Below are positions 1 through 20,992 of a stretch of DNA of 64,000 nucleotides, one piece after another. Source of the stretch: Candidatus Aldehydirespirator sp. (GTDB lineage Bacteria; Actinomycetota; Acidimicrobiia; Acidimicrobiales; Aldehydirespiratoraceae); contig CBDCSK010000016.1 of NCBI GenBank assembly GCA_965221605.1, positions 444,132 through 508,131 of the forward strand, read 5' to 3'. Below the pieces are notes generated by a model. The model ran no database searches. It had not been told where the DNA came from and saw only the letters and a list, made by a program, of their open reading frames with translations. How positions within the stretch are numbered: the stretch's first letter is position 1; each line of letters begins with the position of its first letter. The position numbers and the translations under genes are program-made.

Positions 1-1456
1 CGTCGTCCTCGCCATCATGGCCCGGCGTCGGGGCCGCCGGTCCGGGCGCACTCTGGGAGGCGCCATCGCTCGCCGGCGATTCGTCGCTCGCAGGCGCGGC
101 AGGCTCGCCGTCGGGGTGATGTCTCGACGCGAGCTTGTCGGGTCCGAGGCGGTAGGCACTGTCCGGGGACGCTGCGCTAGACATGAAGCGATCCTCGGCG
201 AGGCCCGTGGAGGACGCCGGGGCGACGATGTCTTGGGCCGTGTCGTCGTGCGGAACGCGTGGCGGCGCGAGGGCCGAGGGGTCGAGCCAGACAAGCCGCT
301 CGCTGTCGGGGCTGCGGTCGCTGAGGACGGGCGACACGCCGGCGGGCAAGTCCGAACCGTCGATGAGTCCCAGCAGAGCGGAGCGCATCGTCTGCCAGAC
401 CTCCGGCGACGATCCCAGGGCACCTGAGGAGAGCACGCCGACGGGGAACCTGCTCATCTTGATGTGCTCGATCAGCGCGTCCAGATTCTCCAAGTCTGCG
501 ACACCCTCCAGATCAAGACGCGACATCCCGTCGTGGGGCGACTCGGTGACGCCACCGGTCCTCTGGGCCAGACGCCCCAGCGCGAACTCGGCCTCGGTCA
601 CCGGCGAAGGAGACCTGACCGTGCCTAGCAAGCTGCGCCACAGGCCTCGCGGGTCATCGTCGTCCACGCCGGATCGAACCGGCTCGCACTCGAGACGGCA
701 CAGCTTGACGACCTCATCGGCGACATCGGACGGCGGAACCGATCCGGCCAGCGCCGCTCTCGATCCTGCGCTGCGAGGCGCAGGCCACGGGGGTGACTCG
801 GGAGCGCCGAGCGAGGCGATGTCGGGCGCGTGCAGCACCCGGACCTGCGCGTGGGCGATCCGGGGGTGCTTCATCTGGCCCGAGTAGTGATCCGCCAGAT
901 CGAGAGCCTCCGCGGCGCCGCGCCAGCCTGCGGCGACACAGAGAGCCAGCGCCGCGCCGAGCACCAGCGGCGCCTGGCCGGACGCGTCGGTCATCGCGGC
1001 GCGACTGCTCGACGTGACGCGTCGGTCGTGCAGCAGGTGGGCGTCCCAGTCGCCGACGAAGTCCCAGTGGCGGTACTCGCAGGGATGTCCGGGCACGGTC
1101 ACGGTGAAGGATCGCACATCGACGTTCGCTCCGACTTGGCTCAGCACAGTCTCACAGGCCGCGTCCTCAGCCCGCCTCGCCTGTTCCGAGGTGCTCACCG
1201 AGCCCCGCAGTGCCACGAGCCAGAGTTCGGTGAGGCCGAGGTCGGCGACGGAGCCGAGGTGCCCGGACACCCAGTTCCGGCCGCGGGCAGCTTCGCACGG
1301 CGCGTTGTTGAGCGATGACCGCAGGTCGTCGGCGTGCGCCCAGGCGACCGGTCCCAGCATCCCGGCCCGGGCCCAAGCCTTGAGGCTGGACGTGAGAGTA
1401 ACGGTGTCGGCCTCATCGGCCGCCGACGTCAACAGAACCAGCCTGTCGGCATCCAT
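1..1456 (-). CDS. hypothetical protein, start inside window, 3' end cut by window edge (>485 aa); distal gene of the tubulin-like/vWA operon
   Basis: Manual minus-strand translation from ATG at 1456 (MDADRLVLLTSAADEADTV...) stays open to position 1 with high GC3. It is not in the ORF track because no stop codon lies inside the window. It begins 40 nt downstream of the stop of the 1080-aa gene. Confidence 0.6.
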   Translation of the reverse strand, partial: MDADRLVLLTSAADEADTVTLTSSLKAWARAGMLGPVAWAHADDLRSSLNNAPCEAARGRNWVSGHLGSVADLGLTELWLVALRGSVSTSEQARRAEDAACETVLSQVGANVDVRSFTVTVPGHPCEYRHWDFVGDWDAHLLHDRRVTSSSRAAMTDASGQAPLVLGAALALCVAAGWRGAAEALDLADHYSGQMKHPRIAHAQVRVLHAPDIASLGAPESPPWPAPRSAGSRAALAGSVPPSDVADEVVKLCRLECEPVRSGVDDDDPRGLWRSLLGTVRSPSPVTEAEFALGRLAQRTGGVTESPHDGMSRLDLEGVADLENLDALIEHIKMSRFPVGVLSSGALGSSPEVWQTMRSALLGLIDGSDLPAGVSPVLSDRSPDSERLVWLDPSALAPPRVPHDDTAQDIVAPASSTGLAEDRFMSSAASPDSAYRLGPDKLASRHHPDGEPAAPASDESPASDGASQSAPGPAAPTPGHDGEDD

Positions 1457-1496
1457 CTCATATCACCGGTCCCGGATTATCCACGGCCGGGCACCC

Positions 1497-4400
1497 TCAG
1501 ATGACCGAGCCGGTCTGTGGCTTCCCGGCGATCAGATCCCTGAGGTCCTGATAGCAGGGGATGAAGATCGGAGCGAGTTCGGTGGTCATCGCGCCGGGCT
1601 CGGTCCAGCCGTCGATGGGGCGCACCATGTGACGGTCCATCGTCTCGTGGTTCCTGAAGCGGTCGAGGTTGGCGTCGAGGTAGCCGATGGCCGCCCTGCG
1701 GCGCCGATCCTCGCTGTCGCCAGAGGCCTTCGGACCCTCGGTGGCGACGACGGGGTGCGGCGGCTCGCCGGTCTTCAGGAGTTGCGAGAGGTCCGTCGGT
1801 ATGCGGCCGTGCCGGGTCGGCAGCCCCAGGTCGTAGAGCCGGCGGTAGGCCTCGTAGACCCCCATGCCCTCACCGCCCACCGTGCCGAACGTCAGGCAGA
1901 AGCTCTCCAGCAACGCCGCGAGCAGGTCGTCACGGTCCCGCAGGCTCGTCAACAGAGGCCACGGGAACGTCGTCTCGCCGCCGGGGGACGCTGTGATGCG
2001 GATTGCGGTGGTCGGATCGGCGGTGATGTAGCCGCACAGACGAGCCACCGCGAAGCCCGAGACCATCGCCTCGAGGGCTTCTCGGGGCAACGGCACGAAA
2101 GCCTCGAGGGTCCGGCCCCTGCGCCACATCCAGAACGTCGCGGAACGCTGTGCAGGCGTGCCACACTTCTGCAACGCCTCGGCGACCGGACCGGCGAAGG
2201 ACCGCACGGCCATCGGGTACATCGGACGGCTGATGTAGGAGGAGACCAGGACTGACGAGCTGTCCTGCACACTGGCGGCATACCAGGCGTCGCCGACGAC
2301 GCTGCGGGCAGCGTCTTGGGCCGGATGGCCGTCCCCGAACGGGAACTGCGAGCAGACCGTGAGGAACTCCAGTGGATCGCTGTTGGTGTGTCCGTAGAGA
2401 GCCTCGTCTATCCGGACGAGCGGATCGGCCGCCTGCTTGGCGTTGCCGAGCTGCTGGCGGAAGTTCATCATGCGGCTCGGGTGGTCGTCGCGCTTGCGGC
2501 CCGTCTCATCCACCTCCTCTAAGTAGGACCGCAACCCCTCGCTCACGCTCCGGTTGAACCGCTCGCCGGGCCGGCGGGTCCACTCGTGCACACGCCGCTC
2601 GATGTCGTTCTCGCTCGCATCGCACACCACGTCAGCGTGCTGGCCGGGCTGCCAGCGGTGGTGCTCGCCGGGCCGTATCAGGGGCTTCATCTCGCTGTCG
2701 CCCGCGATCAGCCGGTAGCGGAGCGCGTCGGTGGGGAGATTCCCGAAGGGAATGTCGTCGATGCGTGCCTCGGCGCACAGGTCGCCGAGCAGGCCGGGCC
2801 ACTTGTCGTGGCGTTCCAGGGGGAACTCGACGGTGGAGGGCAGGTAGCGAGCCGACCGGTCGGTGACGCCCGACGGCCAGGCCTTCACGCTGTCCTCGTC
2901 GAGAGCGTTGCCGACCTCCTGCTGCGCGGCCCTCACCGCGCGCCGGAGCGCTCCGAAGACCTGCTCGCCCGCGGCCTCCATGGCCTGGGCCGCATGTTCG
3001 AGCCGCTCGGCGCGCCACCGCTGCGCAACTCCGCGGGCGATGCATTCGGCGGCGGTGCGCACCTCGGCGGAGTCACCGCTCAACTCCTCAGGACTCCGGA
3101 GCGCGTCAAGGCCCTTCTTCACTTCTGTTCGGTACGCACGCTCAGCCTTCTTGGCTTCAGAGCGGATCCGGTTGACATCGGCTGGGTTGAGCTTCTCGGC
3201 CACATACGAGAGGGCAGCGGCGGCCACGCTCAGCGACGACAGTGCCGCGACCGCCGATGTCGCCCTGCAGCTCGCCTCGACCAGTTGGCGGCACCATCGG
3301 CTGTCGGGCGGAGCGTCGGCCTTCTCGGCCCACTCGTCGGCCAGACGGCCACCGATGGACTTGATCCGCTGCTCCCATTGCTCGCCCGGCCCCTGCTGGT
3401 TCGCTGGGAACTGGAGCGCCACGATGACCTGGTCCCGCACACTTCGCACCGCCTCGTCCGAGGCGAAGCTCTCGTGCGCGGAGGGGTAGCCCCGGGCGGA
3501 ATCGCCGCCGGCGGTGGTGGCACCACGGTGGATTCTGTCGGCATAGTGCCGGCCCAGAGTCTCGATCTGCTCCTGCTCGGTGTCGCCGGTGGTCCGGCTC
3601 GCGAGCTGACTCAGCCGCAGATGTCCCTCGGACAGGCTCTCGAGGACTTGACGGGCGAGCAGTTGCTCGGCCCACAACGAGAACCGGTCCCGGCCGACGG
3701 TGATCTTGGCCGCGCCGAACGAGGACACCGCTCCGAAGAGGTGCTCTTGTGCGAAGGGGTAGCCGCCGTCGTTGTCCTTGGCGGAATCGCGCCAGTTGAC
3801 GTTGATGAAGTTGTGGATGCGCTCCTGCACGACATCATCGACCACCCAGGTGGACAGCGCCTCGCCGGTGGCGCGATAGACCTCCGCGGTATCGCCGAGG
3901 TCGGTGCCGCTGTAGCTGTGGCGTCCGACCAGGAAGATCGAGTGGGGACCCACGCCCGGCTCGTTGACGTTCTTGGTGCCAAGCGGTGACTCGATCTCCC
4001 CCGGTCGGGACCAGTAGGCGGCGAGCAGCTCGCTCATCAGTCCGAGCGAGTTGGCCGCCATCGAGCCGGAGTCGGGCAGATCGAAGATGTCGTTGGTGAA
4101 CAGCACCAGCGCGGGATGGCTGCCGCGGGGGTCGCAGGCCCGGACCAGATCTATGACATCGAGCGCGACGCCGGCACCGGTCCCACCGGCCATCGACGAG
4201 ATGACCACCACCAGCGGCTCGGGGGTCGCGCCGCCGAGCTCGGACTCGAAGCCGAGACGAGATCCGACTTCGTGCAGCTGCGGCCCCCCGGCCGCGGTGC
4301 GTGCGAAGGCTTCCTTGAGGCGATCCAGCACTGCGCCCTCCAGTGACAGCAGACCTGCGGCCCGGCCGATCCCGCGGTTGCGGCCCGCGCCGTCCTTGAG

Positions 4401-4739
4401 CGGCACTTTGACCGATCGGGGGTCCGGGAGCCAGCCGCACAGCGGCCGGGCATTCTGGACAGGTCCGTCCGCGCTGTATTTGATGGTCAGCGCCTCGTAG
4501 AGGTCCCTGTAGCGCGGGACCATCGTCGATATCGACAGAAAGTCCGCTGCCGGGATCTCGGGAATCTCCGTGGGATCCTCCTGGACGGTCAGCGTGTCGA
4601 GACCGATGAACTGCCAGGCGTCGGGCATGCCGTCCACCCAGCCGCTGTGGCTGAGGTGCCGCCGCACGGCGTCGCGCACGTAGCGCACGGCCTTGGTGCC
4701 TGAGCCGCCGCAGCCGATGAAGATGGCCGGTCTGAGCAT
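1497..4739 (-). CDS. giant FtsZ/tubulin-superfamily GTPase-like protein (N-terminal GTPase head plus ~850-aa unique extension)
   Basis: 1080-aa ORF. Motifs: FIGCGGSGTK (aa 7-16, glycine-rich G-box), DGAGRNRGIGRAAG (aa 116-129, resembles the FtsZ T3 loop GLGAGANPEVGR), SSMAGGTGAGVALDVIDLV (aa 181-199, tubulin signature GGGTGSG-like, coded at 4170..4187). GGAG lies 7 nt upstream of the ATG. Confidence 0.85.
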   Translation of the reverse strand: MLRPAIFIGCGGSGTKAVRYVRDAVRRHLSHSGWVDGMPDAWQFIGLDTLTVQEDPTEIPEIPAADFLSISTMVPRYRDLYEALTIKYSADGPVQNARPLCGWLPDPRSVKVPLKDGAGRNRGIGRAAGLLSLEGAVLDRLKEAFARTAAGGPQLHEVGSRLGFESELGGATPEPLVVVISSMAGGTGAGVALDVIDLVRACDPRGSHPALVLFTNDIFDLPDSGSMAANSLGLMSELLAAYWSRPGEIESPLGTKNVNEPGVGPHSIFLVGRHSYSGTDLGDTAEVYRATGEALSTWVVDDVVQERIHNFINVNWRDSAKDNDGGYPFAQEHLFGAVSSFGAAKITVGRDRFSLWAEQLLARQVLESLSEGHLRLSQLASRTTGDTEQEQIETLGRHYADRIHRGATTAGGDSARGYPSAHESFASDEAVRSVRDQVIVALQFPANQQGPGEQWEQRIKSIGGRLADEWAEKADAPPDSRWCRQLVEASCRATSAVAALSSLSVAAAALSYVAEKLNPADVNRIRSEAKKAERAYRTEVKKGLDALRSPEELSGDSAEVRTAAECIARGVAQRWRAERLEHAAQAMEAAGEQVFGALRRAVRAAQQEVGNALDEDSVKAWPSGVTDRSARYLPSTVEFPLERHDKWPGLLGDLCAEARIDDIPFGNLPTDALRYRLIAGDSEMKPLIRPGEHHRWQPGQHADVVCDASENDIERRVHEWTRRPGERFNRSVSEGLRSYLEEVDETGRKRDDHPSRMMNFRQQLGNAKQAADPLVRIDEALYGHTNSDPLEFLTVCSQFPFGDGHPAQDAARSVVGDAWYAASVQDSSSVLVSSYISRPMYPMAVRSFAGPVAEALQKCGTPAQRSATFWMWRRGRTLEAFVPLPREALEAMVSGFAVARLCGYITADPTTAIRITASPGGETTFPWPLLTSLRDRDDLLAALLESFCLTFGTVGGEGMGVYEAYRRLYDLGLPTRHGRIPTDLSQLLKTGEPPHPVVATEGPKASGDSEDRRRRAAIGYLDANLDRFRNHETMDRHMVRPIDGWTEPGAMTTELAPIFIPCYQDLRDLIAGKPQTGSVI

Positions 4740-4748
4740 CTGCTACTC

Positions 4749-6989
4749 CTAACTGTCTCGACTGTCTCGGCCGAACGGGTCAGCGTCGTCGCGGTCCTGC
4801 TCGACGTCGTCTGGTCGGTGGTCTGCGTCGTCGAAGAAGGGGTCTTGCAGCGCGGGATCAGGCTCCGCCTGATCCGACGCCGCTGGATCCGTCCCGGTGG
4901 CGTCCGCCGCACCCGCGGTGTCGCTGCTCTCCGGTACCGAGACACCAGTTTGGGCCGAGGCACGGTGCTGCTCCCACGCCGGCGTTGCCTCACCGACCGC
5001 GTCTGCGATCCGGTCGCGCCTGGTGTCGTCGTCGTCGAAGGGCAGGTCCCACACAATGACACGTGGATCGTGATCGGTATCGTGAACTACCCAGCCCCTC
5101 TCAAGATCCGGCCCGATCACCGCTTCGACGCGGCCGCGCCTGGGACGCTTGTGTCCGGCCGGGCCGATGCAGTCCCCGGACGCTTCCGACGACGCTCGCA
5201 ACTGCGGTGCGCCGCCCCGCAGCAGCGGCAGCCACGCCGACCGTAGCCGCACGCCCCTGATGGTGGCCGACGGCTTGCGCTGCTGTAGCTCCATGCAGCT
5301 GTGGGACGGATCGGGCGCCGGCAGTGGTACGCCCTCGACGTCGCCGCCGTCGACGACAGGCAGCACCGCATAGTCCGATGAACTCAACGGCTGCCACGGC
5401 CGCAGTCGCCAGGCGATCCAGAACCTCGCCACGGCGGCGGCCGCGAGCAGCGCGGCCAGCATGGGCAAGAACTTGAGCAGCGGGTTCTCCGGTGGCGGCG
5501 GCACGGGTATGGTCTTCTTCTCGCACAGGTGCTCACGCTCAAGAGCGCCGATGAGCCGCCGGAGTTTCTCGAAGTCCGGGGTGCCAGCCGGAACGCCCGA
5601 GCGCGCCAGCAATTCGTCCACGGCCTCGGGCTCATCGACGGCGCACAGCATGAGAACCAGCGACAACTCGACATCGCGGTCGGGTGGAACGTGCACCGTG
5701 ATGGGGTCGGTGCAGACCTCCGTTCCCCCTCCGGTCACCGAGCCTGGGATCGTGCAGGCCCATTGGCCGACCTCGGCACTCGTTGCGTCGCGAGAGGTGC
5801 CGTCCTTCTCGTCGCGGAACCTCACAGATTGCAGGTCCATACGCGCCGGCAGCTTGCCCGGCGAGACTGACACCAGAATGCTCTTGACGTCGACGGTGTC
5901 GACCGGGGGGCTGATCTCCTCCATCGCGAGGTTCGACGGCAACCAGCGGGCGTCCGGATCGATGATCGGGTCGAGTTCGGTCGCGAGCAGCACGGACCTG
6001 CGCTCCCGACCCAGCGCCTCGGCGAGGGCCTCGCTTCTCGCTCCATAGCCTGCGGAGTCCGCTTCATATCCGAGGCGCTCCAGCAGCCCCACAGCGGAGC
6101 CAGAGGACTCGGTGATGGTCAGTGGGATGCCCAACTTCATCGTCGGCCTGAACGGTTGGTTGGCGCTGACTTCGATGGAGATGGGCTCGGGACAGGTGAA
6201 CCTGCTCGCACCGCCGGCCGCCGCCGGAACTTCACAGGTCCATTCTGCATTAGCGACAGCGACGTCGACGGCCGCTGCAGAGTCCGTATAGGAGTCCTGC
6301 TCGACGAGTTCAACACCCGCGGCGGCGAGGCTCAGCGTTGCCGGGATCTCACCGGCAACGGCGCTCACCGCGAATCCCGCTCCGCTCCAATCATGCTGCG
6401 GATCGCCGAGGGTCACGTCAGTGGGCAGCCAGCGGATGCCGGAATCGAGGGGCAGACAGAACAGGGGGTCCGCAGACCTGCCGTCGGTCACATCCAGCAG
6501 ATACGAGGCTTCGCGTTCGGTGAGGTCGAGCCGCCCGACGTCACGGGCCCACACCAGCGGCTCGGGCGCTCCGGCATACGTGAATGTCTGGCTCAACACC
6601 GCAACGAGAGCGATACCGCCGCGCTGCGTCAGCGCGTCGCGCAGGTTCGTGCCGTTGCCTCCTCGGTCGGGGCTGTCCCAGTGGACGAGTTCACCGAAGA
6701 TGTCCGGCAGTGAGAAGCGGCGCGTGTCCTGCGCCACAACGAGCGGCTCCCCGGTGAGCGATTGTCGGGTCGGGTAGACCGGTTCTCCGTCACCAGCGTC
6801 CACACGGAGCCGAAACTCGATGTCGGAGTAGTTCTGAGTCGGGTAGTTCGCCACGAAGCCGCTCACGCTGCACTGGTTGTCGATCCCGAAGCTGTCGATG
6901 AACGGCGAGTCCTCGCGCTGTACCCGCACGGCCGCTGCCGCCCGCCGGGCGTCTTCCTGCGCGGCGGGAGTGTCCCCGAAGAACAGCAC
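4749..6989 (-). CDS. single-pass membrane protein with duplicated ~145-aa Cys-pair module and acidic C-terminal tail
   Basis: 746-aa ORF with GTG start. One hydrophobic helix LKFLPMLAALLAAAAVARFWIAW (5406..5477). Two internal repeats each carry W-x-C-x13-C-x-[DE]-P-I. The tail carries DPFF and DPFG motifs. Same frame as the upstream vWA ORF. Confidence 0.8.
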   Translation of the reverse strand: MLFFGDTPAAQEDARRAAAAVRVQREDSPFIDSFGIDNQCSVSGFVANYPTQNYSDIEFRLRVDAGDGEPVYPTRQSLTGEPLVVAQDTRRFSLPDIFGELVHWDSPDRGGNGTNLRDALTQRGGIALVAVLSQTFTYAGAPEPLVWARDVGRLDLTEREASYLLDVTDGRSADPLFCLPLDSGIRWLPTDVTLGDPQHDWSGAGFAVSAVAGEIPATLSLAAAGVELVEQDSYTDSAAAVDVAVANAEWTCEVPAAAGGASRFTCPEPISIEVSANQPFRPTMKLGIPLTITESSGSAVGLLERLGYEADSAGYGARSEALAEALGRERRSVLLATELDPIIDPDARWLPSNLAMEEISPPVDTVDVKSILVSVSPGKLPARMDLQSVRFRDEKDGTSRDATSAEVGQWACTIPGSVTGGGTEVCTDPITVHVPPDRDVELSLVLMLCAVDEPEAVDELLARSGVPAGTPDFEKLRRLIGALEREHLCEKKTIPVPPPPENPLLKFLPMLAALLAAAAVARFWIAWRLRPWQPLSSSDYAVLPVVDGGDVEGVPLPAPDPSHSCMELQQRKPSATIRGVRLRSAWLPLLRGGAPQLRASSEASGDCIGPAGHKRPRRGRVEAVIGPDLERGWVVHDTDHDPRVIVWDLPFDDDDTRRDRIADAVGEATPAWEQHRASAQTGVSVPESSDTAGAADATGTDPAASDQAEPDPALQDPFFDDADHRPDDVEQDRDDADPFGRDSRDS

Positions 6990-7037
6990 AGACCACTCGC
7001 CCTCCCATTGCCACTGCCACTGGTTGGAGTTGGTCAG

Positions 7038-8237
7038 CTACTCGGCAGCCTGATGGCCGACAATCTGCAGGTCGCTCGGGTAGTTCGACCGTGTGAAGAA
7101 GCCGAACGGATTGACAGGCAGGTATCGGCCAGTCTGTTCGCGAGGCCTGATGTCACCGCGCACGCCGATTGAGGGACTGGTGGTCCCGTCAGGGGCTCGT
7201 ACGACCGCAAGCACGTCATCGGGATTCTCAATCTCACGCCCGATGAAAGTGAGGTCTACGAAGGCGCGGAAGCTCTCGATTCCCGGGTCAAGGTCGAAGA
7301 ACACGATGCATGGGTCGCTCGGACTGCCGTCGCCGCCCGAGCACCGTCCTTCGTCAAGCTGGGTTTGGGACGGCCTCACAGGGTCGGGCATCGGCTCCTC
7401 AGGCGGCTGCGGAGTCCGTCCAATCACCGTCTCGATGAGCTCGCGGAGCACGGTGTTCAGTCTGTCGGCGTCAAAGCTGTCGTAGATCTCGCCCCGAAGT
7501 GGATTGATACATCTGAGCGATGCATCGGCCGGGCTCGCCTGGCCATAGAGGTAGCGCAGCCTGCTGGCCTCCGACTCGCCCTCCCTGAGCTGGACCGCTC
7601 CCACCCAGACATGATCACGCAGTGACTGCATTTCGGGGCTGCTGCACAGCTCGAACAGTTGGCGTTGCTCGCCCGCCTCGTCCTCTGCGGTGGCGTGCTC
7701 GCCGTCAGTGAACCAGATCAGCAGATTGCAGTCGTCAGCACGCGTCGCGAACCGTTCGCGCCAAGCGTCGGTGAGTGCGGCGCCGTAGTCTGTGTACAAG
7801 CCCGAGTCGGTGGCGATTGTGTCGACGGAGTCGCCCAACCGCGAGTAGACCTCGCTCGCGGCATACCATCCCGCCTGGCGGGAGTAGCTTGCATCGAAGG
7901 TGTCGAGCGCGACCTCAATGTTGGCGTCCTCGGGGTAGCTGAGGCTGAGCCCTTCGATGACTTGCAAGGCGTCGCTGGTGCCAGCAGATCGCAAATTGCC
8001 TGGGTCGGTAGTCCTCAGGCTGCCCGAAGTGTCGAGCAGGATGAGCAGGTTGATTCTCAGGGCACGATCGCCAGCAGTCACGGTGCACACGTCTTGCACA
8101 TCCACGCCAGTCTCCGCGCTCGCATGCGGCGCAGCCAATGCTGCGATCGGCATCGCGGCGCTGGCCGCGACAGCCAGGAGCGCGCCGACACGCCGAACTG
8201 GTATCACGGCGTCGCGAGACCTTTCGCAGCCAGCCAT
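7038..8237 (-). CDS. secreted von Willebrand factor A (vWA) domain protein with MIDAS motif
   Basis: Signal peptide VIPVRRVGALLAVAASAAMPIAALAAPHASA-ETG. MIDAS DTSGS at 8019..8033. LLIWFTDGEH with TDG at 7701..7709. Start is ATG 8237, or GTG 8207 in a GTGA overlap with the upstream stop. The track start at 8456 is probably too long. Confidence 0.85.
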   Translation of the reverse strand: MAGCERSRDAVIPVRRVGALLAVAASAAMPIAALAAPHASAETGVDVQDVCTVTAGDRALRINLLILLDTSGSLRTTDPGNLRSAGTSDALQVIEGLSLSYPEDANIEVALDTFDASYSRQAGWYAASEVYSRLGDSVDTIATDSGLYTDYGAALTDAWRERFATRADDCNLLIWFTDGEHATAEDEAGEQRQLFELCSSPEMQSLRDHVWVGAVQLREGESEASRLRYLYGQASPADASLRCINPLRGEIYDSFDADRLNTVLRELIETVIGRTPQPPEEPMPDPVRPSQTQLDEGRCSGGDGSPSDPCIVFFDLDPGIESFRAFVDLTFIGREIENPDDVLAVVRAPDGTTSPSIGVRGDIRPREQTGRYLPVNPFGFFTRSNYPSDLQIVGHQAAE

Positions 8238-8722
8238 GCGCCGCCGACAGCCGCAAGGAACACCACAAGCCGCAGCGACGCCGTCGGCCGGGGCCGTCCG
8301 TAGACGCGCCTGGCGTGCCGGATGCTCCGCTGACGCAGGTCGCCGGCCGCCGCCGCCAGGTAGGCGAGGCCACCGACGGCCACCGTCAGCCAGCCCGCCT
8401 CGTTCGCCCCCATGGCCAAGGCGACGACAGCACCCGCCAGGGAGACGAGCGACCACGCCAGGACACGACGGTCGCCGAGCCTGCGGGTGCCCTTCTTGGG
8501 CGGCGCGCCATCAGGGACAGCCGCGTCGAGCCCGTCGTTGAATCCGTCCTCGAAGAACGGATCGTCTTGCCAACTGGCGCTCACGGCGCGTCTGTCCTGG
8601 CCGAAGCCATGGCCGCGCAGGCTAGCCCAGGGGTATGACAGCGCTGTCAGCGGGGACGCAGTGGATGCCTCCAGGTGCCCGGTGGCTGCCGCAACTGTTG
8701 GCGATGATTCGATCATTATCAT
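8204..8722 (-). CDS. small membrane protein (about 3 TM helices) with N-terminal DPFF motif; first gene of the operon
   Basis: 172-aa ORF. Hydrophobic helices VLAWSLVSLAGAVVALAMGA, GWLTVAVGGLAYLAAAAG and LRLVVFLAAVGGAWLAA. Its stop overlaps the candidate GTG start of the vWA gene. Confidence 0.65.
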   Translation of the reverse strand: MIMIESSPTVAAATGHLEASTASPLTALSYPWASLRGHGFGQDRRAVSASWQDDPFFEDGFNDGLDAAVPDGAPPKKGTRRLGDRRVLAWSLVSLAGAVVALAMGANEAGWLTVAVGGLAYLAAAAGDLRQRSIRHARRVYGRPRPTASLRLVVFLAAVGGAWLAAKGLATP

Positions 8723-8761
8723 TCATTTTCAGGTTGCATGGCTGCAGTTGGAAGGGTTAGG

Positions 8762-9187
8762 ATGGGGTCCATGGACAGCGGGACGGCCACGACAGTGCTG
8801 ACCATCCTCGGGACGTCCTTCGGCGCCATCCTGGCCTCGCTGATAACGCTGATGGTGGCCTCGATCCGCATCCAGCACCGGGACAGCACCGAGACTCGCC
8901 GGCTCATCACCGACGCCGGCAAGGAGAACCGGGATCTCATCGACCAGGCCCGCAAGGAGAACCGGGATCTCATCGACCAGGCCCGCAAGGAGAACCGGGA
9001 CCTGATCGACAAGAACCGCGACCTGATCGACAAGAACCGGGACCTGATCGAGAGGAACCACGGCGCCGTGATCAGCATCCTCGGCGACGCCCGGGAACGG
9101 CTCGCTCGCATCGAGGGCCACCTGCGGATCGGCCAGCCCGCGGCCGACGATCCCGAATCGGACGGCAACAGCCGCGAGGCTGCCTGA
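8762..9187 (+). CDS. membrane-anchored coiled-coil protein with tandem KENRDLIDQAR / KNRDLID repeats
   Basis: ORF 8738..9187. GGAAGGG lies 5 nt upstream of ATG 8762. N-terminal TM segment TATTVLTILGTSFGAILASLITLMVASI. Divergent from the operon, with only ~40 bp between the two starts. Confidence 0.6.
   Translation: MGSMDSGTATTVLTILGTSFGAILASLITLMVASIRIQHRDSTETRRLITDAGKENRDLIDQARKENRDLIDQARKENRDLIDKNRDLIDKNRDLIERNHGAVISILGDARERLARIEGHLRIGQPAADDPESDGNSREAA
8921..9052 (+). repeat. in-frame tandem repeat: 2 perfect 33-bp units, one 24-bp unit, two 21-bp units
   Basis: aaggagaaccgggatctcatcgaccaggcccgc at 8921..8953 is repeated exactly at 8954..8986, followed by shortened variants up to 9052. 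Confidence 0.9.
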
Positions 9188-9240
9188 CGGGCCCAGCACA
9201 ACGCCGCACCCCCAGACGGCATCATCTACCGGCTCGCGCG

Positions 9241-10925
9241 GCTAGCCCAGATATTTCAGTAGAGGGGCTTGGGCGGGGTGGCTGTGCCGCGGGAATGCCC
9301 TCCTGGTGTGGGAGAATCGGGCTTGTAGACAGTCCCGAGGCCACACCGGGGAGGGCACTCGCATGGTGAAGCATACAGGCATCCGGCCGCGGCTGAGGTT
9401 CACCGGCGGGGGGCGGGGTCTGGCTGTTCATGCGGGGGCTCGGCTGCTGGTCGATCTGGCCGAGAATGTGGGGTTGACGGCGGCGTTGTCTGAGGCGATG
9501 GCGGGGGCCAAGGTGCGGGGTCGGGGCCATGACTGGGGCCGGGTTCTGGCGGACGCGGCGGTGATGATCGCCGACGGCGGCGAGGCGATCTGTGACATCG
9601 CCGCGTTGGCGTGCCAGCGGGGTCTGTTCGGGGAGGTCGCGTCGGCGCCGACGCTGTGGCGGGCCCTCGACGCCGCGGGGGGCCGCGTCGGGCAGATCAA
9701 AGCAGCCAGGGCGCGGGCCCGCGCCGGGGCGTGGGCCGCGGGCGCGGACCCGGGGTTCTATGTGATCGACATCGACGCCACGCTGGTGAGCTCGCACTCT
9801 GACAAGCAGGCCGCCGCGGGGACCTACAAGGGAGGCTTCGGGTTCCATCCGCTTATGGCCTATCTCGACGCGACCGGCGAGGCGCTGGCCGGTGTGCTGC
9901 GGCCCGGCAACGCCGGATCGAACACCGCGGCTGACCACATCGAGGTCCTCGACGACGCCCTCGCGCAGATACCCGTCGATCCCCGAAGCGCAGAGGTGAT
10001 CGCCAGAGCCGACACCGCGGGCTGCACCCGGGAGTTCCTCAAAGCGTGCCGGGAGCGCAAAGTCCGGTTCTGCGTCGGGCACAAGCTGAGCATCGACATC
10101 GCACAGATCATCGTCGAAGTCCCCGACAAGGCGTGGCAGCCGGCGCTCAGCGCGGACGGCTCGGAGCTGCGCGACTGTGCCGAGGTCACCGAGATCACCG
10201 AACTCGCGGACCTGTCGAACTGGCCCGAGGGCACCCGCATGATCGCCCGCCGCGAACACCCCCACCCCGGCGCGCAGCTCACCTTCACCGACGCAGACGG
10301 ACACCGCCTGCAAGTGCTCATAACCGACATAACCGCCGACACCGACACCGGCACCGGCACCGACAGCGCCGGCGCCGCCGGCGGCGACATCGCCTACATC
10401 GAGGCGCTGCACCGCGGCCGCGGCCGAGCCGAACGCCAGATCACCGACCACAAGAACACAGGACCGGCCAAACTCCCCTCTGAATCGCTGGCCATCAACC
10501 GCGCCTGGCTGCAACTCACCATGGCCGCGCACGACCTGCTCGCATGGACCAAACTGCTCGCCCTCGACGGCAGCCTCGCCAAAGCCGAACCCAAACGGCT
10601 CCGCCACTGCCTGCTGCACACCGCAGCCCGACTCACACACACCGGGCGCCGACACACCGCCAAACTCGCCGACGACTGGCCCTGGACCCCCCACCTCATC
10701 ACCGCGTTCGACCGCGTCCACAACCTCCCCCTGCTCATCTGAACACACCCCGCGGCGACGCACCGGGCGCGCCGGCACAACCCCACCCGGCCAACCCGCA
10801 CCCGCACCCCCCCCCCCACAGGCCCGCCACGCCCCCACACGCCCACCGGCCGCCCGCGCCGATCCCCGGACCCGACCCAGCCCCAAAGCCGCCCCCCAAC
10901 GGCCCTACTGAAAGATCTGGGCTAG
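9241..10925 (+). mobile_element. IS1380-family insertion sequence (~1.68 kb) with flanking (G)CTAG target-site duplication
   Basis: Left terminal IR cccagatatttcagtag (9246..). Right end ctactgaaagatctggg (..10921). Direct repeat gctag at 9241..9245 and 10921..10925. Single transposase ORF. Confidence 0.85.
9363..10742 (+). CDS. IS1380-family DDE transposase
   Basis: The N-terminus MVKHTGIRPRLRFTGGGRGLAVHAGARLLVDLAENVGL and the block YVIDIDATLVSSHSDKQAAAGTYKGGFGFHPLMAYLD..LRPGNAGSNTAADH look typical of IS1380 transposases. Confidence 0.9.
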   Translation: MVKHTGIRPRLRFTGGGRGLAVHAGARLLVDLAENVGLTAALSEAMAGAKVRGRGHDWGRVLADAAVMIADGGEAICDIAALACQRGLFGEVASAPTLWRALDAAGGRVGQIKAARARARAGAWAAGADPGFYVIDIDATLVSSHSDKQAAAGTYKGGFGFHPLMAYLDATGEALAGVLRPGNAGSNTAADHIEVLDDALAQIPVDPRSAEVIARADTAGCTREFLKACRERKVRFCVGHKLSIDIAQIIVEVPDKAWQPALSADGSELRDCAEVTEITELADLSNWPEGTRMIARREHPHPGAQLTFTDADGHRLQVLITDITADTDTGTGTDSAGAAGGDIAYIEALHRGRGRAERQITDHKNTGPAKLPSESLAINRAWLQLTMAAHDLLAWTKLLALDGSLAKAEPKRLRHCLLHTAARLTHTGRRHTAKLADDWPWTPHLITAFDRVHNLPLLI

Positions 10926-11611
10926 GCGTCCAGGATGGCAGCTACCTCTTCGTCGGTTAGGCGGCGGAAGGCTCGGCGGCCGTTGGAGCGGTCGAGCACG
11001 GCGGCCTCAAGGCTCGCTGCGCTGAGGGTCCGGTCGGGGCCGGCCAGGGCTGCCACCGCAGCCCGCACACCGTCGGCGAGCGAGCGGGGCGAGTCCGGCA
11101 GGGCGTCCTCGAAGCGCTCCGAGATCTCCTCGGTCTCGCCGCCCAGCACGACCCAGTCGTCCTCGTCGACCACGGTGCCGTCATAGAGGATGTGGAACAG
11201 CTGGTCGCCGCGGCCGTCGTCGTCGAGGCCGATCTCGGCCACCAGGATCTCCACCTCCATCGGCTTGACCTCGTGGGTGAAGACCTGCCCCAGGCTCTGG
11301 GCGTAGGCGTTGGCCAGGCTGCGGGCGTCCACGTCCTCGCGACTGAAGGCGAAGCCCTTCAGGTCGGCGTGGCGCACCCCGGCTATGCGGAGCTGGTCGA
11401 ACTCGTTGTAGCGGCCCACCCCCGCGAAGGCGATGCGGTCGTAGATCTCGCTCACCTTGCGCAGCGTGCTGGAGGTGTTCTCGGCCACGATGGCTATGCC
11501 GCCGCTGTAGCGGAAGGCGACCAGGCTTCGGCCCCGGGCGATGCCCTTGCGCGCGTAGTCGGCCTTGTCCTTCATCACCTGCTCGGGCGGTGCGTAGAAG
11601 GGCATGGTCAT
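10922..11611 (-). CDS. prcA: proteasome subunit alpha
   Basis: [29 protein letters not shown]..., 229 aa. ATGA overlap with the prcB stop. Its stop codon TAG lies inside the IS target duplication. Confidence 0.95.
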   Translation of the reverse strand: MTMPFYAPPEQVMKDKADYARKGIARGRSLVAFRYSGGIAIVAENTSSTLRKVSEIYDRIAFAGVGRYNEFDQLRIAGVRHADLKGFAFSREDVDARSLANAYAQSLGQVFTHEVKPMEVEILVAEIGLDDDGRGDQLFHILYDGTVVDEDDWVVLGGETEEISERFEDALPDSPRSLADGVRAAVAALAGPDRTLSAASLEAAVLDRSNGRRAFRRLTDEEVAAILDA

Positions 11612-12444
11612 GACTTGCCGCCCCCGCCGGCCTCCCGCCGGCTGCGGTGGCGGCGCAGCAGCCGCTCGGTGCGCCGGCGCAGTTCGGCGTCCTCCAGGCG
11701 CTGGTAGCCGCCGGCGTCGATCACCGCCACCACCGGGAACACGTCGCGCACCGGGTCGGGGCCGCCGGTGGCCGAATCGGCGTCGGAGGCCACATACAGC
11801 GCGTCCAGCACCAGATCGGTGGCCGCGGTCCTCGTCATCGACGGGCGGAAGCCCAGCTTCACCACGGTGTCGGCGTGCAGCGAGCCGGAGCCGGTGGCCG
11901 CATGGTCGCGCTCCTCGTAGCGCCCGCCGGTGACGTCGTACTCGAAGATCCGGCCCTTGGAGGCCGCGGTGTCGAAGCCCGCGAGAATGGGTACCACCAC
12001 CAGGCCCTGCATGGCCGCCGGCAGGTTGGCCCGCACCATCTGACCGAGCTGGTTGGCCTTCCCCTCGAGGCTTATGGGCGTGCCCTCCACCTTCTCGTAG
12101 TGCTCGAGCTGAAGCTGGAACAGCCGCACCATCTCGGTGGAGGGGCCGGCCGCGCCGGCGATGGCCACCCCGGAGTGGCGGTCGGCCGGGAACACCTTCT
12201 CGATGCGGTGGTTGCTGATCAGATGTCCGGCGGTGGCCCGCCGGTCGCCGGCCAGGACCACCCCGGAGTCGTAGCGCACGGCCACGCAGGTCGTTCCGTG
12301 GGGGATCTCCGGCGTCGGCATCGCCGGCAGGTGCTCGGAGGCCGCGCCGGGCGTAGCGGCGCCGGTGCCGGAGCGGGTCTGGCGCAGCAGCGCGGCGAAG
12401 TTGGGGCCAGGATCGTCGTGCGGCCCGAAGCGGGGCAGGCTCAC
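11608..12444 (-). CDS. prcB: proteasome subunit beta (propeptide followed by catalytic Thr)
   Basis: PHG|[21 protein letters not shown], the processing site and N-terminal Thr motif. GTGA overlap with the pup stop. Confidence 0.95.
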
Positions 12445-12635
12445 TCGCCGCCCTTTTGGATGTAGCTCTTCACGAAGTCCTCGGCGTTGGTCTCCAGCAG
12501 CTCGTCGATCTCGTCGAGCAGGTCGTCGAGCTGGGCCTTGATGTCGGAGCCCCGCTCGGACGCGGGCGGCGACTCCTCCACCGACTGCTCACGGGGCGAC
12601 GGCGCCGGCTTGCGGATCTGCTCTCGTTCGGCCAC
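12441..12635 (-). CDS. pup: prokaryotic ubiquitin-like protein Pup (C-terminal GGE)
   Basis: 64 aa ending ...[15 protein letters not shown] start with GGAGGA 5 nt upstream. Confidence 0.95.
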
Positions 12636-12676
12636 TGGGTTCCTCCGGGCTCGTGCTCGATCAAGTTATCCACACC

Positions 12677-14194
12677 TTACGCGCCTGCGGAGCCCAAGCG
12701 TCGCAGCAGCTCCATCGCGGAGCCGCACTCGTCGAACATGTCGCCCACGTGGGCGACCGTCCCCCGCGCCGGCTCGGTCATGGAGACCCGCCGCAGGGAG
12801 CCCTCGCCCACGTCGAAGACGATCGAGTCCCAGTTGGCCGCCACCACCTCGGCCGCGAACTTCTGCAGGCAGCGGCCCCTGAAGTAGGCCCGGGTGTCGG
12901 GCGGGGGCTCGGTCATGGCCCTGACCGCCGCGTCCTCGTCCACCAGCGTCTCCAGCCCGGCCCGGGCGGCCAGGGACCGGTCCGGGCGCAGATCGTGGTA
13001 CTGGATGTCGAGGGCCCGCAGGCGGGCGTCCTGGAGGTCGAGGCCGTGACGGTCCCTGAATCCCTCCAGGAGCCTGAGCTTGGCCACCCAGTCGATCTGG
13101 CCGGCCAGGGTGGCCGGATCGCGCTCCAGGCCGCCGAGCACGTCCTCCCACCGGGCCAGCACCTGGTGCGCCACCGGCCCGCCGGTCGCGTCGGCCCCCC
13201 GCTGCTCGACGTGGGCGCGGGCCGCGGCCAGCAGCTCCCACTGCACGCCGAGAGCGGTGATCGTGGAGCCGTCGGCGAGCTCTAACGGCTGGCGCAGCTG
13301 CAGGTCGTGGCTCACCTGGCGCAGCGCGGCGACCGGCGCCGCGAACCGGAACTCGCGACCCACGGCGTCGTCCTCGGTGAGCGCCATCACCAGCGCGGTC
13401 GTGCCGACCTTGAGGAAGGTCGCGGCCTGCGACATGTTGGCGTCCCCCACGATCACGTGCAGGCGCCGGTACTTGGCCGCGTCGGCGTGGGGTTCGTCGC
13501 GGGTGTTGACGATGGGACGCTTGAGGGTCGTCTCGAGGCCGACCTCCTCCTCGATGAAGTCGGCCCGCTGGGAGATCTGGTAGCCGGCTTCGTCCAGGCG
13601 CATCCCCGGGGTCTCGCTGCCTATCTTGCCGGCGCCGCAGTAGATCTGGCGGGTGACGAAGTGCGCGGTGGCGTTGGTGACGATGCGCGAGAACGGCACC
13701 GCCCGGCTCACCAGGTAGTTCTCGTGGCAGCCGTAGCTGTTGCCCTTGCCGTCGGAGTTGTTCTTGTAGACGACGATCTCCTCGCCCGGCGGGAGCAGCA
13801 TCCGGACCGCCTCCATCGAGCGGGCCGCGATCAGCTCGGCGGCCCGGTCATAGAGGACCGCTGAGAGTGCGTCGGCGCACTCGGGCGTGGACAGCTCCGG
13901 GTGGGCGTGGTCGACGTAGTAGCGGGCGCCGTTGGTGAGCACCGCGTTGACCAGGTGGGTCTCGATCTCCGGTGCCAGCGATCCCGCGGGCGCCCCGCCG
14001 CGTGCGTCGTTCCCCGGGGTCTCGTCGGTGAAGTCCCAGCCCACCGCGGCCCGGCCGGGCTCCGGCGCGTGGCCGTGGGCGATCAGGTAGGCGTTGATCA
14101 GCAGCGACGAGGCCGAGATGGGGTTGGGCTCGGAGGCCCCCCGGTGGACGATGCCGTACTCGGTCTCGAGCCCGAGCATCTTGGGGACAGCCAC
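12677..14194 (-). CDS. dop: Pup deamidase/depupylase Dop
   Basis: LGLETEYGI, LTNGARYYVDHAHPELSTPEC, YKNNSDGKGNSYGCHENYL and NTRDEPHAD motifs. Sits immediately upstream of pup, as in characterised loci. Alternative ATG start at 14179. Confidence 0.9.
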   Translation of the reverse strand: MAVPKMLGLETEYGIVHRGASEPNPISASSLLINAYLIAHGHAPEPGRAAVGWDFTDETPGNDARGGAPAGSLAPEIETHLVNAVLTNGARYYVDHAHPELSTPECADALSAVLYDRAAELIAARSMEAVRMLLPPGEEIVVYKNNSDGKGNSYGCHENYLVSRAVPFSRIVTNATAHFVTRQIYCGAGKIGSETPGMRLDEAGYQISQRADFIEEEVGLETTLKRPIVNTRDEPHADAAKYRRLHVIVGDANMSQAATFLKVGTTALVMALTEDDAVGREFRFAAPVAALRQVSHDLQLRQPLELADGSTITALGVQWELLAAARAHVEQRGADATGGPVAHQVLARWEDVLGGLERDPATLAGQIDWVAKLRLLEGFRDRHGLDLQDARLRALDIQYHDLRPDRSLAARAGLETLVDEDAAVRAMTEPPPDTRAYFRGRCLQKFAAEVVAANWDSIVFDVGEGSLRRVSMTEPARGTVAHVGDMFDECGSAMELLRRLGSAGA

Positions 14195-14231
14195 AGACCG
14201 GACGCTAGCGATTCTTGAGAGCCGGCAGTGA

Positions 14232-15011
14232 CTACAGGATCTGCGAGAGGAACAGCTTGGTTCGCTCCTCGTGGGGATTGTCGAAGAAGTGCTCGGGCGT
14301 CCCGGTCTCGACTATCTGGCCGTCCTCCATGAAGATCACCCGGTCGGCGACCTCGCGGGCGAAGCCCATCTCGTGGGTCACCACCATCATGGTCATGCCC
14401 GAGGTGGCCAGCTCCTTCATCACGTCGAGGACCTCCTTGATCATCTCGGGGTCCAGCGCCGAGGTGGGCTCGTCGAAGAGCATGATCCTGGGCTCCATGG
14501 CCAGGGCCCGGGCGATGGCCACCCGCTGCTGCTGGCCGCCCGAGAGCTGTCCGGGGTACTTCTCGGCCTGCTCGGGTATGCCGACCCGCTCCAGCAGCGA
14601 GCGGGCCAGGTCCTCGGCCTCGGTCTTGGGCTTCTTGCGGACCCAGATCGGCGCCAGCGTGATGTTGTCGAGCACGGTGAGGTGGGGGAACAGGTTGAAC
14701 TGCTGGAACACCATGCCGACCTCGGAGCGGATCCTCTCGATGTTGCGGAGGTCGTTGGTGAGCTCCACGCCGTCTATCACGATGCGGCCCTCCTGGTGGG
14801 CCTCGAGGCGGTTGATGCAGCGGATCCAGGTGGACTTCCCCGAGCCGGACGGGCCCAGCACCACCACCACCTCGCGCTCCTTGATGACCGCGGTGATCCC
14901 GTCGAGGGCCTGGAAGTCCCCGAACCACTTGTTGACCCCCTCGCACACGATCATGTCGTCGCGGGCCGCGAGCTCCTCGGTCAATGCGGTGGTGGCGTCG
15001 CTCACACTCAT
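14232..15011 (-). CDS. polar amino-acid ABC transporter ATP-binding protein
   Basis: Walker [10 protein letters not shown], signature [15 protein letters not shown], Walker [12 protein letters not shown]. Confidence 0.95.
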
Positions 15012-15051
15012 GGCGTGTCCCCCGGTGTTCTCGGTCGTATTCGGGTCGGCA

Positions 15052-20218: not shown

Positions 20219-20987
20219 TCAGCGTGCCGGTGGCGCATAGATGAGGCCGCCGTCGCTCCAGCTTGCGTTGACGGAGCCGCGCGTCAAGACCGCCGGTTCG
20301 AGGTGGCGGGCGACGATCTCGCCGTAGTTTCCCACCTGCGAGATGGCCCGGTGGAAGGCGTCGGGAGCCAGGCCCATGGCCGACTGCAGCTCCCCCTCAC
20401 CGCCGAGCAGCCGGCCCGCCTCCGCATCAGGCGGGCCGGCGGCCACCTCAGCCATATTGCCGGAGGTGATCCCCTTCTCGTCCGCGATGATCGTGGCGTA
20501 GACCGCCCAGTTCACGACGTCAGCGAAGCGAGACTGGTTCTGCGGGTACACCGGGGCCAGCGGTTCCTTGGAGATCGGTATGGCCGGGAAGATCACCCAC
20601 CCCTGGTCGTCGGGCTGCTGCTTCGCCTTGCGGCCGGCCAGCGCCGAGCCGTCGGCGGTGGCCACGTCGCAGGCGCCGCTGATGAAGTTCTCGATGACGG
20701 CGTCGAAGTCCTCGAGGGTGGTGAGCGTTATGTCGATGCCGGCGGCCTCGGCGGCATCAGACGCCGCAGACCAGCCTGCCGCGCTCTTGCACCTTCTGCA
20801 GCAGGTCGCCGTCGCCGCTGTCCTCGACGACGGCCCCGGTCGTCGTCGCGGTCTCCGGGGCCTCGGTCGCCGCCGGCTCGGGCGTGCCCACGGGCTCCGC
20901 GCCGGTGGTGTCCTGCGAATCCGGGTCGCCACAGGCCAACACCGCCCACGCGACGACCCCGAGCGCCAGCAACAGCCCCCGGCTCAC
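20219..20987 (-). pseudogene. degraded paralog of the amino-acid substrate-binding lipoprotein (internal deletion plus frameshift)
   Basis: The N-terminal piece (20757..20987, lipobox AVLACGD, ...RGRLVCGV*) and the C-terminal piece (20219..~20770, SDAAEAAGIDITLTT...LIYAPPAR) lie in different frames. Both align to the intact neighbour 18902..20071, but ~150 aa of the middle are missing. Confidence 0.8.
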
Positions 20988-20992
20988 AGCCC

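Follow-up and report, generated by a model that had tools for sequence, protein, structure and literature searches.

A vWA transmembrane-protein gene of a Tubulin_2 cassette, probably split by a recent nonsense change, in a Candidatus Aldehydirespirator genome

The interrupted gene and its cassette

The DNA analyzed here, referred to as the window, is a stretch of 64,000 nucleotides from Candidatus Aldehydirespirator sp. (assembly GCA_965221605.1, contig CBDCSK010000016.1, positions 444,132 to 508,131). On its minus strand, an ORF encoding a von Willebrand factor A (vWA) protein (7038..8456) and a 746-aa ORF (4749..6989) share one reading frame. An earlier note on this DNA had described a TAG as the only interruption between them, and translation of 8456..4749 bore this out, with the TAG at 7040..7038 (minus strand) as the sole internal stop in 1,236 codons. 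The TAG is followed by 16 sense codons (48 nt, 7037..6990, minus strand), which encode LTNSNQWQWQWEGEWS and lead to the GTG at 6989. This spacer was found to be stop-free and coding-like, as had been proposed, but its GC3 corresponded to 14 of 16 codons and not to the 20 of 22 previously given, a figure that must include flanking codons. The translation also contained the features said to unite the two ORFs, namely Cys pairs in both halves and one motif of the NYP(S/T) type on each side of the TAG (NYPS and NYPT).

The upstream half is likely to start at GTG 8207 and not at 8456. The public gene calls list a 355-aa protein from GTG 8105 (P0056) and the 746-aa protein (P0013). With the start at 8207, the whole disrupted gene would extend over 4749..8207 (minus strand), comprising ~1,152 codons with the single TAG inside. 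The N-terminal fragment (7038..8207, minus strand; 389 codons plus the stop) includes a signal peptide, a vWA domain with a DxSxS metal ion-dependent adhesion site (MIDAS), and the opening strands of the beta domain that follows. The C-terminal fragment, which is the 746-aa ORF from GTG 6989 (4749..6989, minus strand), comprises the remaining ectodomain, a transmembrane (TM) helix (FLPMLAALLAAAAVARFWIAW), and a conserved cytoplasmic domain with an acidic tail closing in DADPFGRD. Hydrophobicity analysis revealed no hydrophobic N-terminus in this ORF and no signal peptide downstream of the TAG, in agreement with what the earlier note had reported. In the joined product there were only two hydrophobic segments, the N-terminal signal peptide and the TM helix at residues ~909–935. 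The gene thus encodes a type-I membrane protein of ~1,150 residues, with signal peptide, MIDAS-containing vWA domain, beta-rich and Cys-pair ectodomain modules, one TM helix and a tail; this coherent architecture had already been anticipated, and it is supported by the two hydrophobic segments and by the fused relatives considered below.

The disrupted gene is the second of a six-gene vWA/FtsZ-like-1 (Tubulin_2) cassette. The first gene (8204..8584, minus strand) encodes a small membrane protein of 126 aa with the N-terminal sequence WQDDPFFEDG and two to three hydrophobic helices; its TGA overlaps GTG 8207 (GTGA), and it is conserved in loci L001–L007 and L011. Only 9 nt past the stop of the disrupted gene, across the junction TAGGAGTAGCAGATG, starts the intact FtsZ-like-1/Tubulin_2 gene (1497..4739, minus strand), whose product of 1,080 aa matched PF13809 (E 4.4e-33, 115 bits, cutoff 27) and which directly follows the vWA-TM gene in 10 of 10 related loci. 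The Tubulin_2 protein carries the signature AGGTGAG, which fits the tubulin GTP-binding signature [SAG]GGTG[SA]G. The 5′ part of the next cassette gene (2..1462, minus strand) is open throughout and leaves the window; in relatives, this gene encodes 937–945 aa with two TM segments. Apart from the TAG, the operon is intact. Searches of NCBIfam, PADLOC and PDB sequences yielded nothing informative for any of the cassette genes, those of the vWA-TM and Tubulin_2 proteins included. Just upstream of the cassette, an IS element (9239..10928, plus strand) was recognized by 40-nt terminal inverted repeats at 9239–9278 and 10889–10928 and by a DDE_Tnp_1_4 transposase gene (9306..10739; PF13701, E 5e-59). 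It occupies the place where the relative L011 has an RHH-PIN toxin-antitoxin pair, which constitutes a synteny break.

The assignment of the upstream domain relied on structural prediction besides sequence profiles. The Pfam search with the window fragment retrieved VWA_2 (E 0.0012) and VWA (E 0.012), both under the gathering score (PF00092/PF13519; 19.9 bits against a cutoff of 27 and 16.3 bits against 23.8), and several relatives carry a precomputed PF13519 match. The MIDAS is intact (DTSGS), with D69, S71, S73, T149 and D178 invariant across the aligned relatives. The AlphaFold2 model considered was that of the closest relative, P0001, and not of the window protein itself; its residues ~16–230 displayed alternating beta and alpha elements with pLDDT of 80–93, and Foldseek assigned this model a probability of 1.0 to the integrin I-domain, LapA vWFA, TRAP and TEM8/CMG2. 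As modeled, therefore, the upstream domain has a predicted vWA (Rossmann-like alpha/beta) fold with a MIDAS. In the same model, the TAG site corresponds to residue 356 (local pLDDT ~87), in a beta-rich region between the strands 345–351 and 369–376. Moreover, in distant homologues the conserved N-terminal module reaches profile position ~413–417, beyond the TAG at ~389. Predicted secondary structure and profile coverage together indicate that the TAG would cut one folded module rather than fall at a domain boundary.

Continuity of the gene among relatives

Two adjacent ORFs in one frame are not remarkable by themselves. By chance, same-frame neighbours are expected once in three cases, and neither this nor a run of 16 stop-free codons at 65% GC is significant alone; indeed, the window holds two further same-frame neighbour pairs, which are genuine separate genes. 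It could accordingly be supposed that the vWA ORF and the 746-aa ORF are two genes of independent origin that share a frame by chance, as the two entries of the public annotation would imply and as the earlier note had listed among its options. The pairing is considered real because homology spans the junction, not because the frames coincide.

The comparison with orthologues that the earlier note had recommended returned fused proteins. About 42 of 55 homologues were single proteins of 1,100–1,165 aa covering 94–99% of the joined query, and the sole 746-aa entry among the 55 was P0013, this genome's own call. Among 50 aligned relatives, the TAG column was occupied by Gln in 37 and by a stop in none. 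At the DNA level, the codon aligned to the TAG was CAG in L002 and L011 and CAA in L001, these being the nearest relatives (92–95% identical locally). The junction was colinear in all relatives, and the spacer (6990..7037, minus strand) ranked among the best-conserved segments: its W-x-W-x-W-x-G-x-W strand presented W25, W27, W29, G31 and W33 invariant in 15 relatives, and intact orthologues contained the same TGGGAGGGNGAGTGG. The supposedly intergenic 48 nt are thus conserved coding sequence.

Ten related loci were examined, eight from species-representative genomes and two fetched by protein look-up, and no internal stop was present in eight of them. The other two were rejected as counter-examples: in L010, the stops adjoin a 10-N scaffold gap, and in L009 the apparent stop came from a match range beginning upstream of the ORF, which is a single ORF of 1,015 codons. 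Two further proteins that start near the junction, P0135 and P0193, do not represent separate genes either, since they derive from copies broken by upstream frameshifts whose junction DNA is continuous. Every relative with a complete gene was fused. Because the relatives make an uninterrupted protein and have Gln where the TAG stands, both ORFs are regarded as parts of one gene, so that the split-gene option was upheld and the two-gene junction, refuted by this comparison, is barely credible.

Origin of the stop and its expected effects

An old pseudogene would be expected to display relaxed selection and further lesions, and neither was observed. Between the window and its relatives, dN/dS was 0.12–0.16 upstream of the TAG and 0.31 downstream, values judged to be the same as those between intact relatives (0.18–0.19 and 0.38, respectively). 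The changes private to the window were 13 synonymous and 3 nonsynonymous upstream, and 29 and 21 downstream. Checked against the relatives, the gene harbored no frameshift and no second stop. Unchanged dN/dS and the lack of a second lesion indicate that the break is either very recent or a consensus base error. The first of these is the preferred reading, to which a probability of roughly 0.6 is given: a single gene was split in this genome by a recent C-to-T nonsense change.

In this scenario, a single transition on the coding strand would have converted the Gln codon CAG into TAG at 7038..7040 (minus strand), a position predicted to fall inside the beta-rich ectodomain module, ~17 codons before the W-x-W-x-W-x-G-x-W strand. 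Translation would then stop at residue 389, releasing a vWA fragment that is secreted without an anchor and whose second domain is incomplete. Re-initiation at GTG 6989, if any, would produce ectodomain, TM helix and tail devoid of a signal peptide, for which normal topology is unlikely. With an unanchored vWA fragment and a signal-less C-terminal product, the receptor would lose its function wholly or in large part. The Tubulin_2 genes downstream may also be subject to a polar effect. Near-cognate readthrough of UAG at a low level would, through the usual insertion of Gln, remake the wild-type protein, and such an event would be incidental, not programmed.

The organism may instead carry CAG and an intact gene, the T at 7040 (coding strand) being a consensus base error or the call of a minor allele. 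This reading is deemed unlikely, yet it accounts for the lack of further lesions and the unchanged dN/dS equally well. The source is a metagenome-type assembly, with a contig of 645,160 bp, and the sister records are metagenome-assembled genomes (MAGs); clear errors occur in low-coverage contigs of similar assemblies, such as frameshift-fragmented copies in L013 (2x) and the N-gap in L010. The same strain was not encountered in any other assembly that could serve as a cross-check: exact look-ups of this genome's own proteins returned no contig on record, two DNA-pattern scans of JGI metagenomes for the same strain gave no match, and the genome was absent from the species-representative set, in which the best match reached 88%. 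However, the errors seen in sister assemblies were indels and gaps, not substitutions, and substitution errors are rare in polished consensus sequences. Moreover, ~8.7 kb aligned at 90–93% identity with intact relatives carried no frameshift or extra stop.

It could also be argued that the TAG is real and used, either to yield a secreted vWA fragment along with a separately initiated C-terminal protein or as a leaky stop setting a low receptor dose, in effect a surface protein that varies between on and off states within the symbiont population. The SD-like GGGAGGG located 10 nt ahead of GTG 6989, which the earlier note had taken as a sign that independent initiation was possible, is indeed present. 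However, both signals are by-products of conserved codons, because GGGAGGG corresponds to codons of the conserved W-E-G-E-W motif, being also found in intact orthologues, and the column of GTG 6989 is Leu in 45 of 50 relatives; the sequence was therefore confirmed and its interpretation was not. A C directly after UAG makes for a comparatively weak termination signal, and the residue usually incorporated by near-cognate suppression is Gln, here the ancestral one; both points would speak for a functional TAG. The downstream half is under the same constraint as in the relatives, although a lesion that has had too little time to gather changes would leave the same picture. Against such a role, no relative has a stop at this site, the break lies within a conserved module and not at a domain boundary, and the downstream product would have to export an ectodomain of ~520 aa with no signal peptide. 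A used TAG is considered quite improbable.

Programmed readthrough and UAG recoding (by pyrrolysine or a suppressor tRNA) share with this locus an in-frame UAG flanked by coding sequence on both sides. They differ from it in that here UAG terminates normally in the window and the stop is conserved at the site in 0 of 50 relatives. Because no relative conserves the stop, readthrough, one of the options of the earlier note, is not supported as a programmed feature. In the window, TAG ends about nine other coding-like ORFs, the disrupted gene's own end included; no other TAG-interrupted gene was detected, and the only other TAG-separated same-frame pair consists of two unrelated genes. Neither a tRNA gene nor recoding machinery was seen in the window. 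The normal termination of other genes at TAG and the lack of any other interrupted gene led to the rejection of TAG recoding, and the TAG represents an ordinary gene break or base-call error, not a special decoding signal. A more specific proposal, in which the population keeps a real TAG as a leaky "dimmer", with near-cognate tRNA-Gln readthrough of UAG-C restoring the exact ancestral residue, is a highly speculative one. If it were true, the product of the sponge symbiont lineage would be largely a soluble vWA fragment that is shed, with only traces of the full Tubulin_2-coupled receptor, and a surface-exposed protein could thereby be switched in a simple way between on and low states under pressure from the host or phages.

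Relation to known systems and significance

Operons that combine vWA proteins and FtsZ-like-1 (FtsZl1; Pfam Tubulin_2, PF13809) were described by Makarova and Koonin in 2010 (PMC2875224), and the vWA/FtsZl1 class is still functionally uncharacterised (PMC9871819). The disrupted gene belongs to this already known class. As in those operons, Tubulin_2 lies beside a co-oriented vWA protein that has a signal peptide, a TM segment and a MIDAS whose DxSxS motif is intact, and several more lineage-specific membrane or secreted proteins are encoded in the same operon. In contrast, no GTPase, protein kinase or OmpA-family partner was detected in the cassette, the version described here is confined, as sampled, to sponge-associated Acidimicrobiia, and the vWA gene of the window bears a premature stop.

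With nonsense-disrupted genes, such as nascent pseudogenes and split calls in draft genomes or MAGs, the locus shares the origin of the stop from an ancestral sense codon by a one-base change, orthologues that are intact and colinear, and a public annotation that lists two neighbouring ORFs in one frame. It differs in showing no secondary decay so far, in an otherwise intact operon, and a base error would look the same. The similarity to eukaryotic vWA type-I receptors, such as proteins with integrin I-domains and the anthrax toxin receptors TEM8/CMG2, is an analogy of architecture only. In both, an extracellular MIDAS vWA domain is followed by beta modules and then by one TM helix with a tail in the cytoplasm, and the presumed intracellular partner is a cytoskeletal-family protein in each. 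The likeness is limited, however, to the vWA fold, at 10–20% identity (Foldseek matches include 4nen_A, 3n2n_A and 9doc), and in place of actin or talin the putative partner would belong to the tubulin superfamily.

For annotation, the public calls of 355 aa and 746 aa need to be joined into a single entry marked as an interrupted gene, with the upstream half beginning at GTG 8207 so that the signal peptide is included. In this copy of the cassette, the receptor subunit has probably been lost only recently, beside a fresh IS insertion, and such a loss suggests that this lineage can do without the vWA/Tubulin_2 cassette. As a conserved and clear-cut example of the FtsZ-like-1 systems, the cassette could serve as a model for them.

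Continuity of the reading frame across the junction

The vWA ORF (7038..8456, minus strand), of 472 codons from its first GTG, and the 746-aa ORF (4749..6989, minus strand), which starts with GTG, lie in the same frame and are split only by a TAG, as claimed by the earlier note, since 8456..4749, translated in one frame, held just one internal stop among its 1,236 codons. The junction reads GGC CAT CAG GCT GCC GAG TAG CTG ACC AAC TCC AAC CAG TGG CAG TGG CAA TGG GAG GGC GAG TGG TCT GTG CTG TTC, in which 16 sense codons (48 nt) separate the TAG (7040..7038) from GTG 6989. These 48 nt are free of stops, as described, but their GC3 was counted as 14 of 16 codons and not 20 of 22. NYPS/NYPT motifs and Cys pairs were found on both sides of the TAG in the joined translation. 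Same-frame adjacency by itself is not statistically remarkable, since one third of neighbouring pairs are in frame and the window holds two other same-frame pairs whose members are plainly unrelated, one made up of a PBP4-type carboxypeptidase and a LON-N protein and the other of RNase D and a small protein.

The joined sequence, with the TAG replaced by X, retrieved 55 homologues, about 42 of which were single proteins, 1,100-1,165 aa long, that spanned 94-99% of the query with up to 90% identity, and the sole 746-aa entry was the gene call from this genome itself. The junction was colinear and well conserved when 15 and when 50 relatives were aligned (consensus IVGHQAAE-Q-L(T/A)xSN(Q/R)WxWQWEGEW(S/x)(L/V)LFFGDTP), and the spacer's Trp and Gly residues were invariant. 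The TAG column was occupied by Gln in 11/15 and 37/50 relatives, with no stop among the 50. In the nearest DNA relatives, the codon aligned to the TAG was CAG in the Logan contig L002 and the 1.63-Mb contig L011, which are 92-95% identical to the window, and CAA in L001 (OZ241894, a Candidatus Aldehydirespirator sp. MAG). Orthologues are therefore fused, and among the options first considered it was the split gene that agreed with these data.

The proposal of two genuine genes relied on a GGGAGGG located 10 nt 5′ of GTG 6989, which is indeed present. However, this motif is the coding sequence of W-E-G-E-W and therefore also occurs in the intact genes of these nearest relatives, and the column of the supposed GTG start held Leu in 45/50 relatives and Val in the other five. 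Given the colinear junction of the relatives and the conserved coding sequence of the spacer, two separate genes are extremely improbable.

The vWA-TM gene was found in eight species-representative genomes, all of them Acidimicrobiia MAGs and several from sponge bins. When these eight loci were examined together with L001 and L002, an internal stop was absent in 8 of the 10; L010, whose stops fall at an assembly gap, and L009, which encodes one 1,015-codon ORF, were both rejected as counter-examples. A profile run against 1.84 billion cluster representatives returned 58 proteins at E<1e-30, and among its matches to long proteins the stronger ones extended across the junction (profile position ~389). 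P0135 and P0193, two proteins that begin near the junction, were discarded as separate genes, being copies broken by upstream frameshifts whose DNA is continuous through the junction.

Architecture of the joined product and consequences of the stop

The joined product presented only two hydrophobic segments, an N-terminal signal peptide (VGALLAVAASAAMPIAALA followed by ASAETG) and a TM helix (residues ~909-935, followed by RLRPW). Together with the vWA domain, these segments bear out the architecture predicted earlier, and the downstream ORF does lack a signal peptide, the only other hydrophobic segment being the TM helix. In the start region (8105..8237, minus strand), the most plausible start is GTG 8207 (MIPVRRVGALL...), where the N-termini of relatives also align and where the start codon shares a GTGA with the TGA of the gene upstream; with this start the protein regains its signal peptide, for which more distant relatives have a homologous one. 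The public call of the upstream half (P0056, 355 aa) starts at GTG 8105 and excludes the signal peptide, and the public calls of the closest relatives (P0001-P0003) likewise start short.

Pfam vWA matches were weak (19.9 and 16.3 bits, both below the gathering score). The MIDAS residues D69, S71, S73, T149 and D178 were invariant in relatives, and the AF2 model of the closest relative (mean pLDDT 75.6; 80-93 in the vWA domain) matched integrin I-domains, the vWA domains of the SpaC and LapA adhesins, TRAP and TEM8/CMG2 with a Foldseek probability of 1.0. The N-terminal domain is a vWA domain. The TAG corresponds to residue 356 of this model, which belongs to a short helix flanked by strands 345-351 and 369-376 within a beta-rich region (local pLDDT ~87), and in more distant profile matches the conserved N-terminal module ended at ~413-417, beyond the TAG position. 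Judging from secondary structure and profile coverage, the TAG appears to cut a module and not a domain boundary.

Incidental near-cognate readthrough at the TAG would probably insert Gln, yielding the wild-type protein. Nevertheless, that the TAG is functionally exploited, as a split or a leaky stop, is improbable, as TAG is a normal terminator in the window, where it ends about nine coding-like ORFs, including the vWA-TM gene's own 3′ end; several orthologues likewise end in TAG. Neither other TAG-interrupted genes nor a tRNA gene were found in the window, and a conserved recoding signal was excluded because no relative has the stop. The downstream fragment would carry ~520 ectodomain residues without a signal peptide, and its correct topology after a putative re-initiation at GTG 6989 is unlikely.

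Age and nature of the lesion

No stop or frameshift besides the TAG was found in the whole vWA-TM gene. By the Nei-Gojobori method, dN/dS of the window against its relatives was 0.12-0.16 on the upstream side of the TAG and 0.31 on the downstream side, essentially equal to the values between intact relatives (0.18-0.19 and 0.38), and the window-private codon changes (synonymous:nonsynonymous) were 13:3 upstream and 29:21 downstream. Since neither measure gave any sign of relaxed constraint in this gene, the TAG is either a very young stop or a consensus base error. The errors seen in sister assemblies are indels and gaps, not substitutions, so that a real recent nonsense mutation is favoured, with a probability of roughly 0.6, over an assembly or sequencing error, which is a rather unlikely though serious alternative.

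Divergence within the gene (4752..8105, minus strand) was mosaic, with dS being 0.13 to L011 and 0.49 to L001 upstream of the TAG, and 0.21 and 0.17, respectively, downstream, which suggests that inter-lineage recombination may have occurred inside it. The ectodomain, at 87-90% amino-acid identity, evolves much faster than the neighbouring Tubulin_2 protein, at 95-98%. Distant vWA-TM relatives in L012 (3946..6296) and L013 (2930..6855) were frameshifted into 3-6 ORF calls; the gene may be decaying repeatedly in this group. L013 is a 2x-coverage contig whose breaks may be errors. L012 lacks the Tubulin_2 gene and has a Cas12f1-like/TnpB gene and an HNH endonuclease gene nearby.

The vWA/Tubulin_2 cassette and its neighbourhood

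The interrupted gene is the second of a conserved six-gene cassette. It is preceded by a gene (8204..8584, minus strand) for a membrane protein of 126 aa whose N-terminus carries a WQDDPF motif and followed, after 9 nt, by an intact Tubulin_2 gene (PF13809, E 4e-33; 1,080 aa), an adjacency kept in 10/10 related loci. The remaining genes encode, in order, a protein of ~940 aa that has two TM segments, one of 230 aa that has a lipoprotein-like signal (...VVVVSC) and a secreted one of 279 aa. This organization fits the vWA/FtsZl1 operons, for which a role in membrane remodelling was proposed (Makarova & Koonin 2010, PMC2875224). A 2023 survey described Tubulin_2 proteins as divergent, with an unclear relationship to FtsZ/tubulin and no reported function (PMC9871819).

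The N-terminus of the small membrane protein bears a conserved acidic WQDDPF(A)FE(D/E) motif and the vWA-TM C-terminus (4752..4830, minus strand) a conserved QDPF(F/A)DD...DDADPFGRD, the DPF motif being conserved in eight related loci (L001-L007 and L011). As both termini are predicted to be cytoplasmic, these peptides could serve to dock a partner in the cytoplasm, for which the Tubulin_2 protein is one candidate.

The cassette is inserted in the Pup-proteasome locus of both the window and L011, where the genes for the proteasome subunits flank it on one side and a second Pup-ligase gene on the other (window 10920..15990; L011 1..5258 and 20835..22244). A RelA_SpoT-domain gene and a WYL/WCX regulator accompany it in L011, whereas its neighbours in L001 are SNF2/DEAD/MZB helicases, an AAA_16-HTH protein and a Mu-type transposase. 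From these different neighbourhoods, the cassette would behave like a mobile island. Immediately upstream of it, an IS element (9239..10928, plus strand; 40-nt imperfect terminal inverted repeats) with a DDE_Tnp_1_4 (PF13701) transposase (9306..10739) occupies the exact place of an RHH-PIN toxin-antitoxin pair in the syntenic L011. The ~570-nt stretch between cassette and IS element (8673..9239) has no counterpart in L011; an ORF at 8738..9184 (plus strand; 149 aa, GC3 0.86) had no family match save a weak ATP-synt_B at E 0.012.

A member of a known, uncharacterised operon class is here interrupted by a single-nucleotide nonsense change, or carries a base error; the general interest of the finding is low, and its main use is to correct the annotation.
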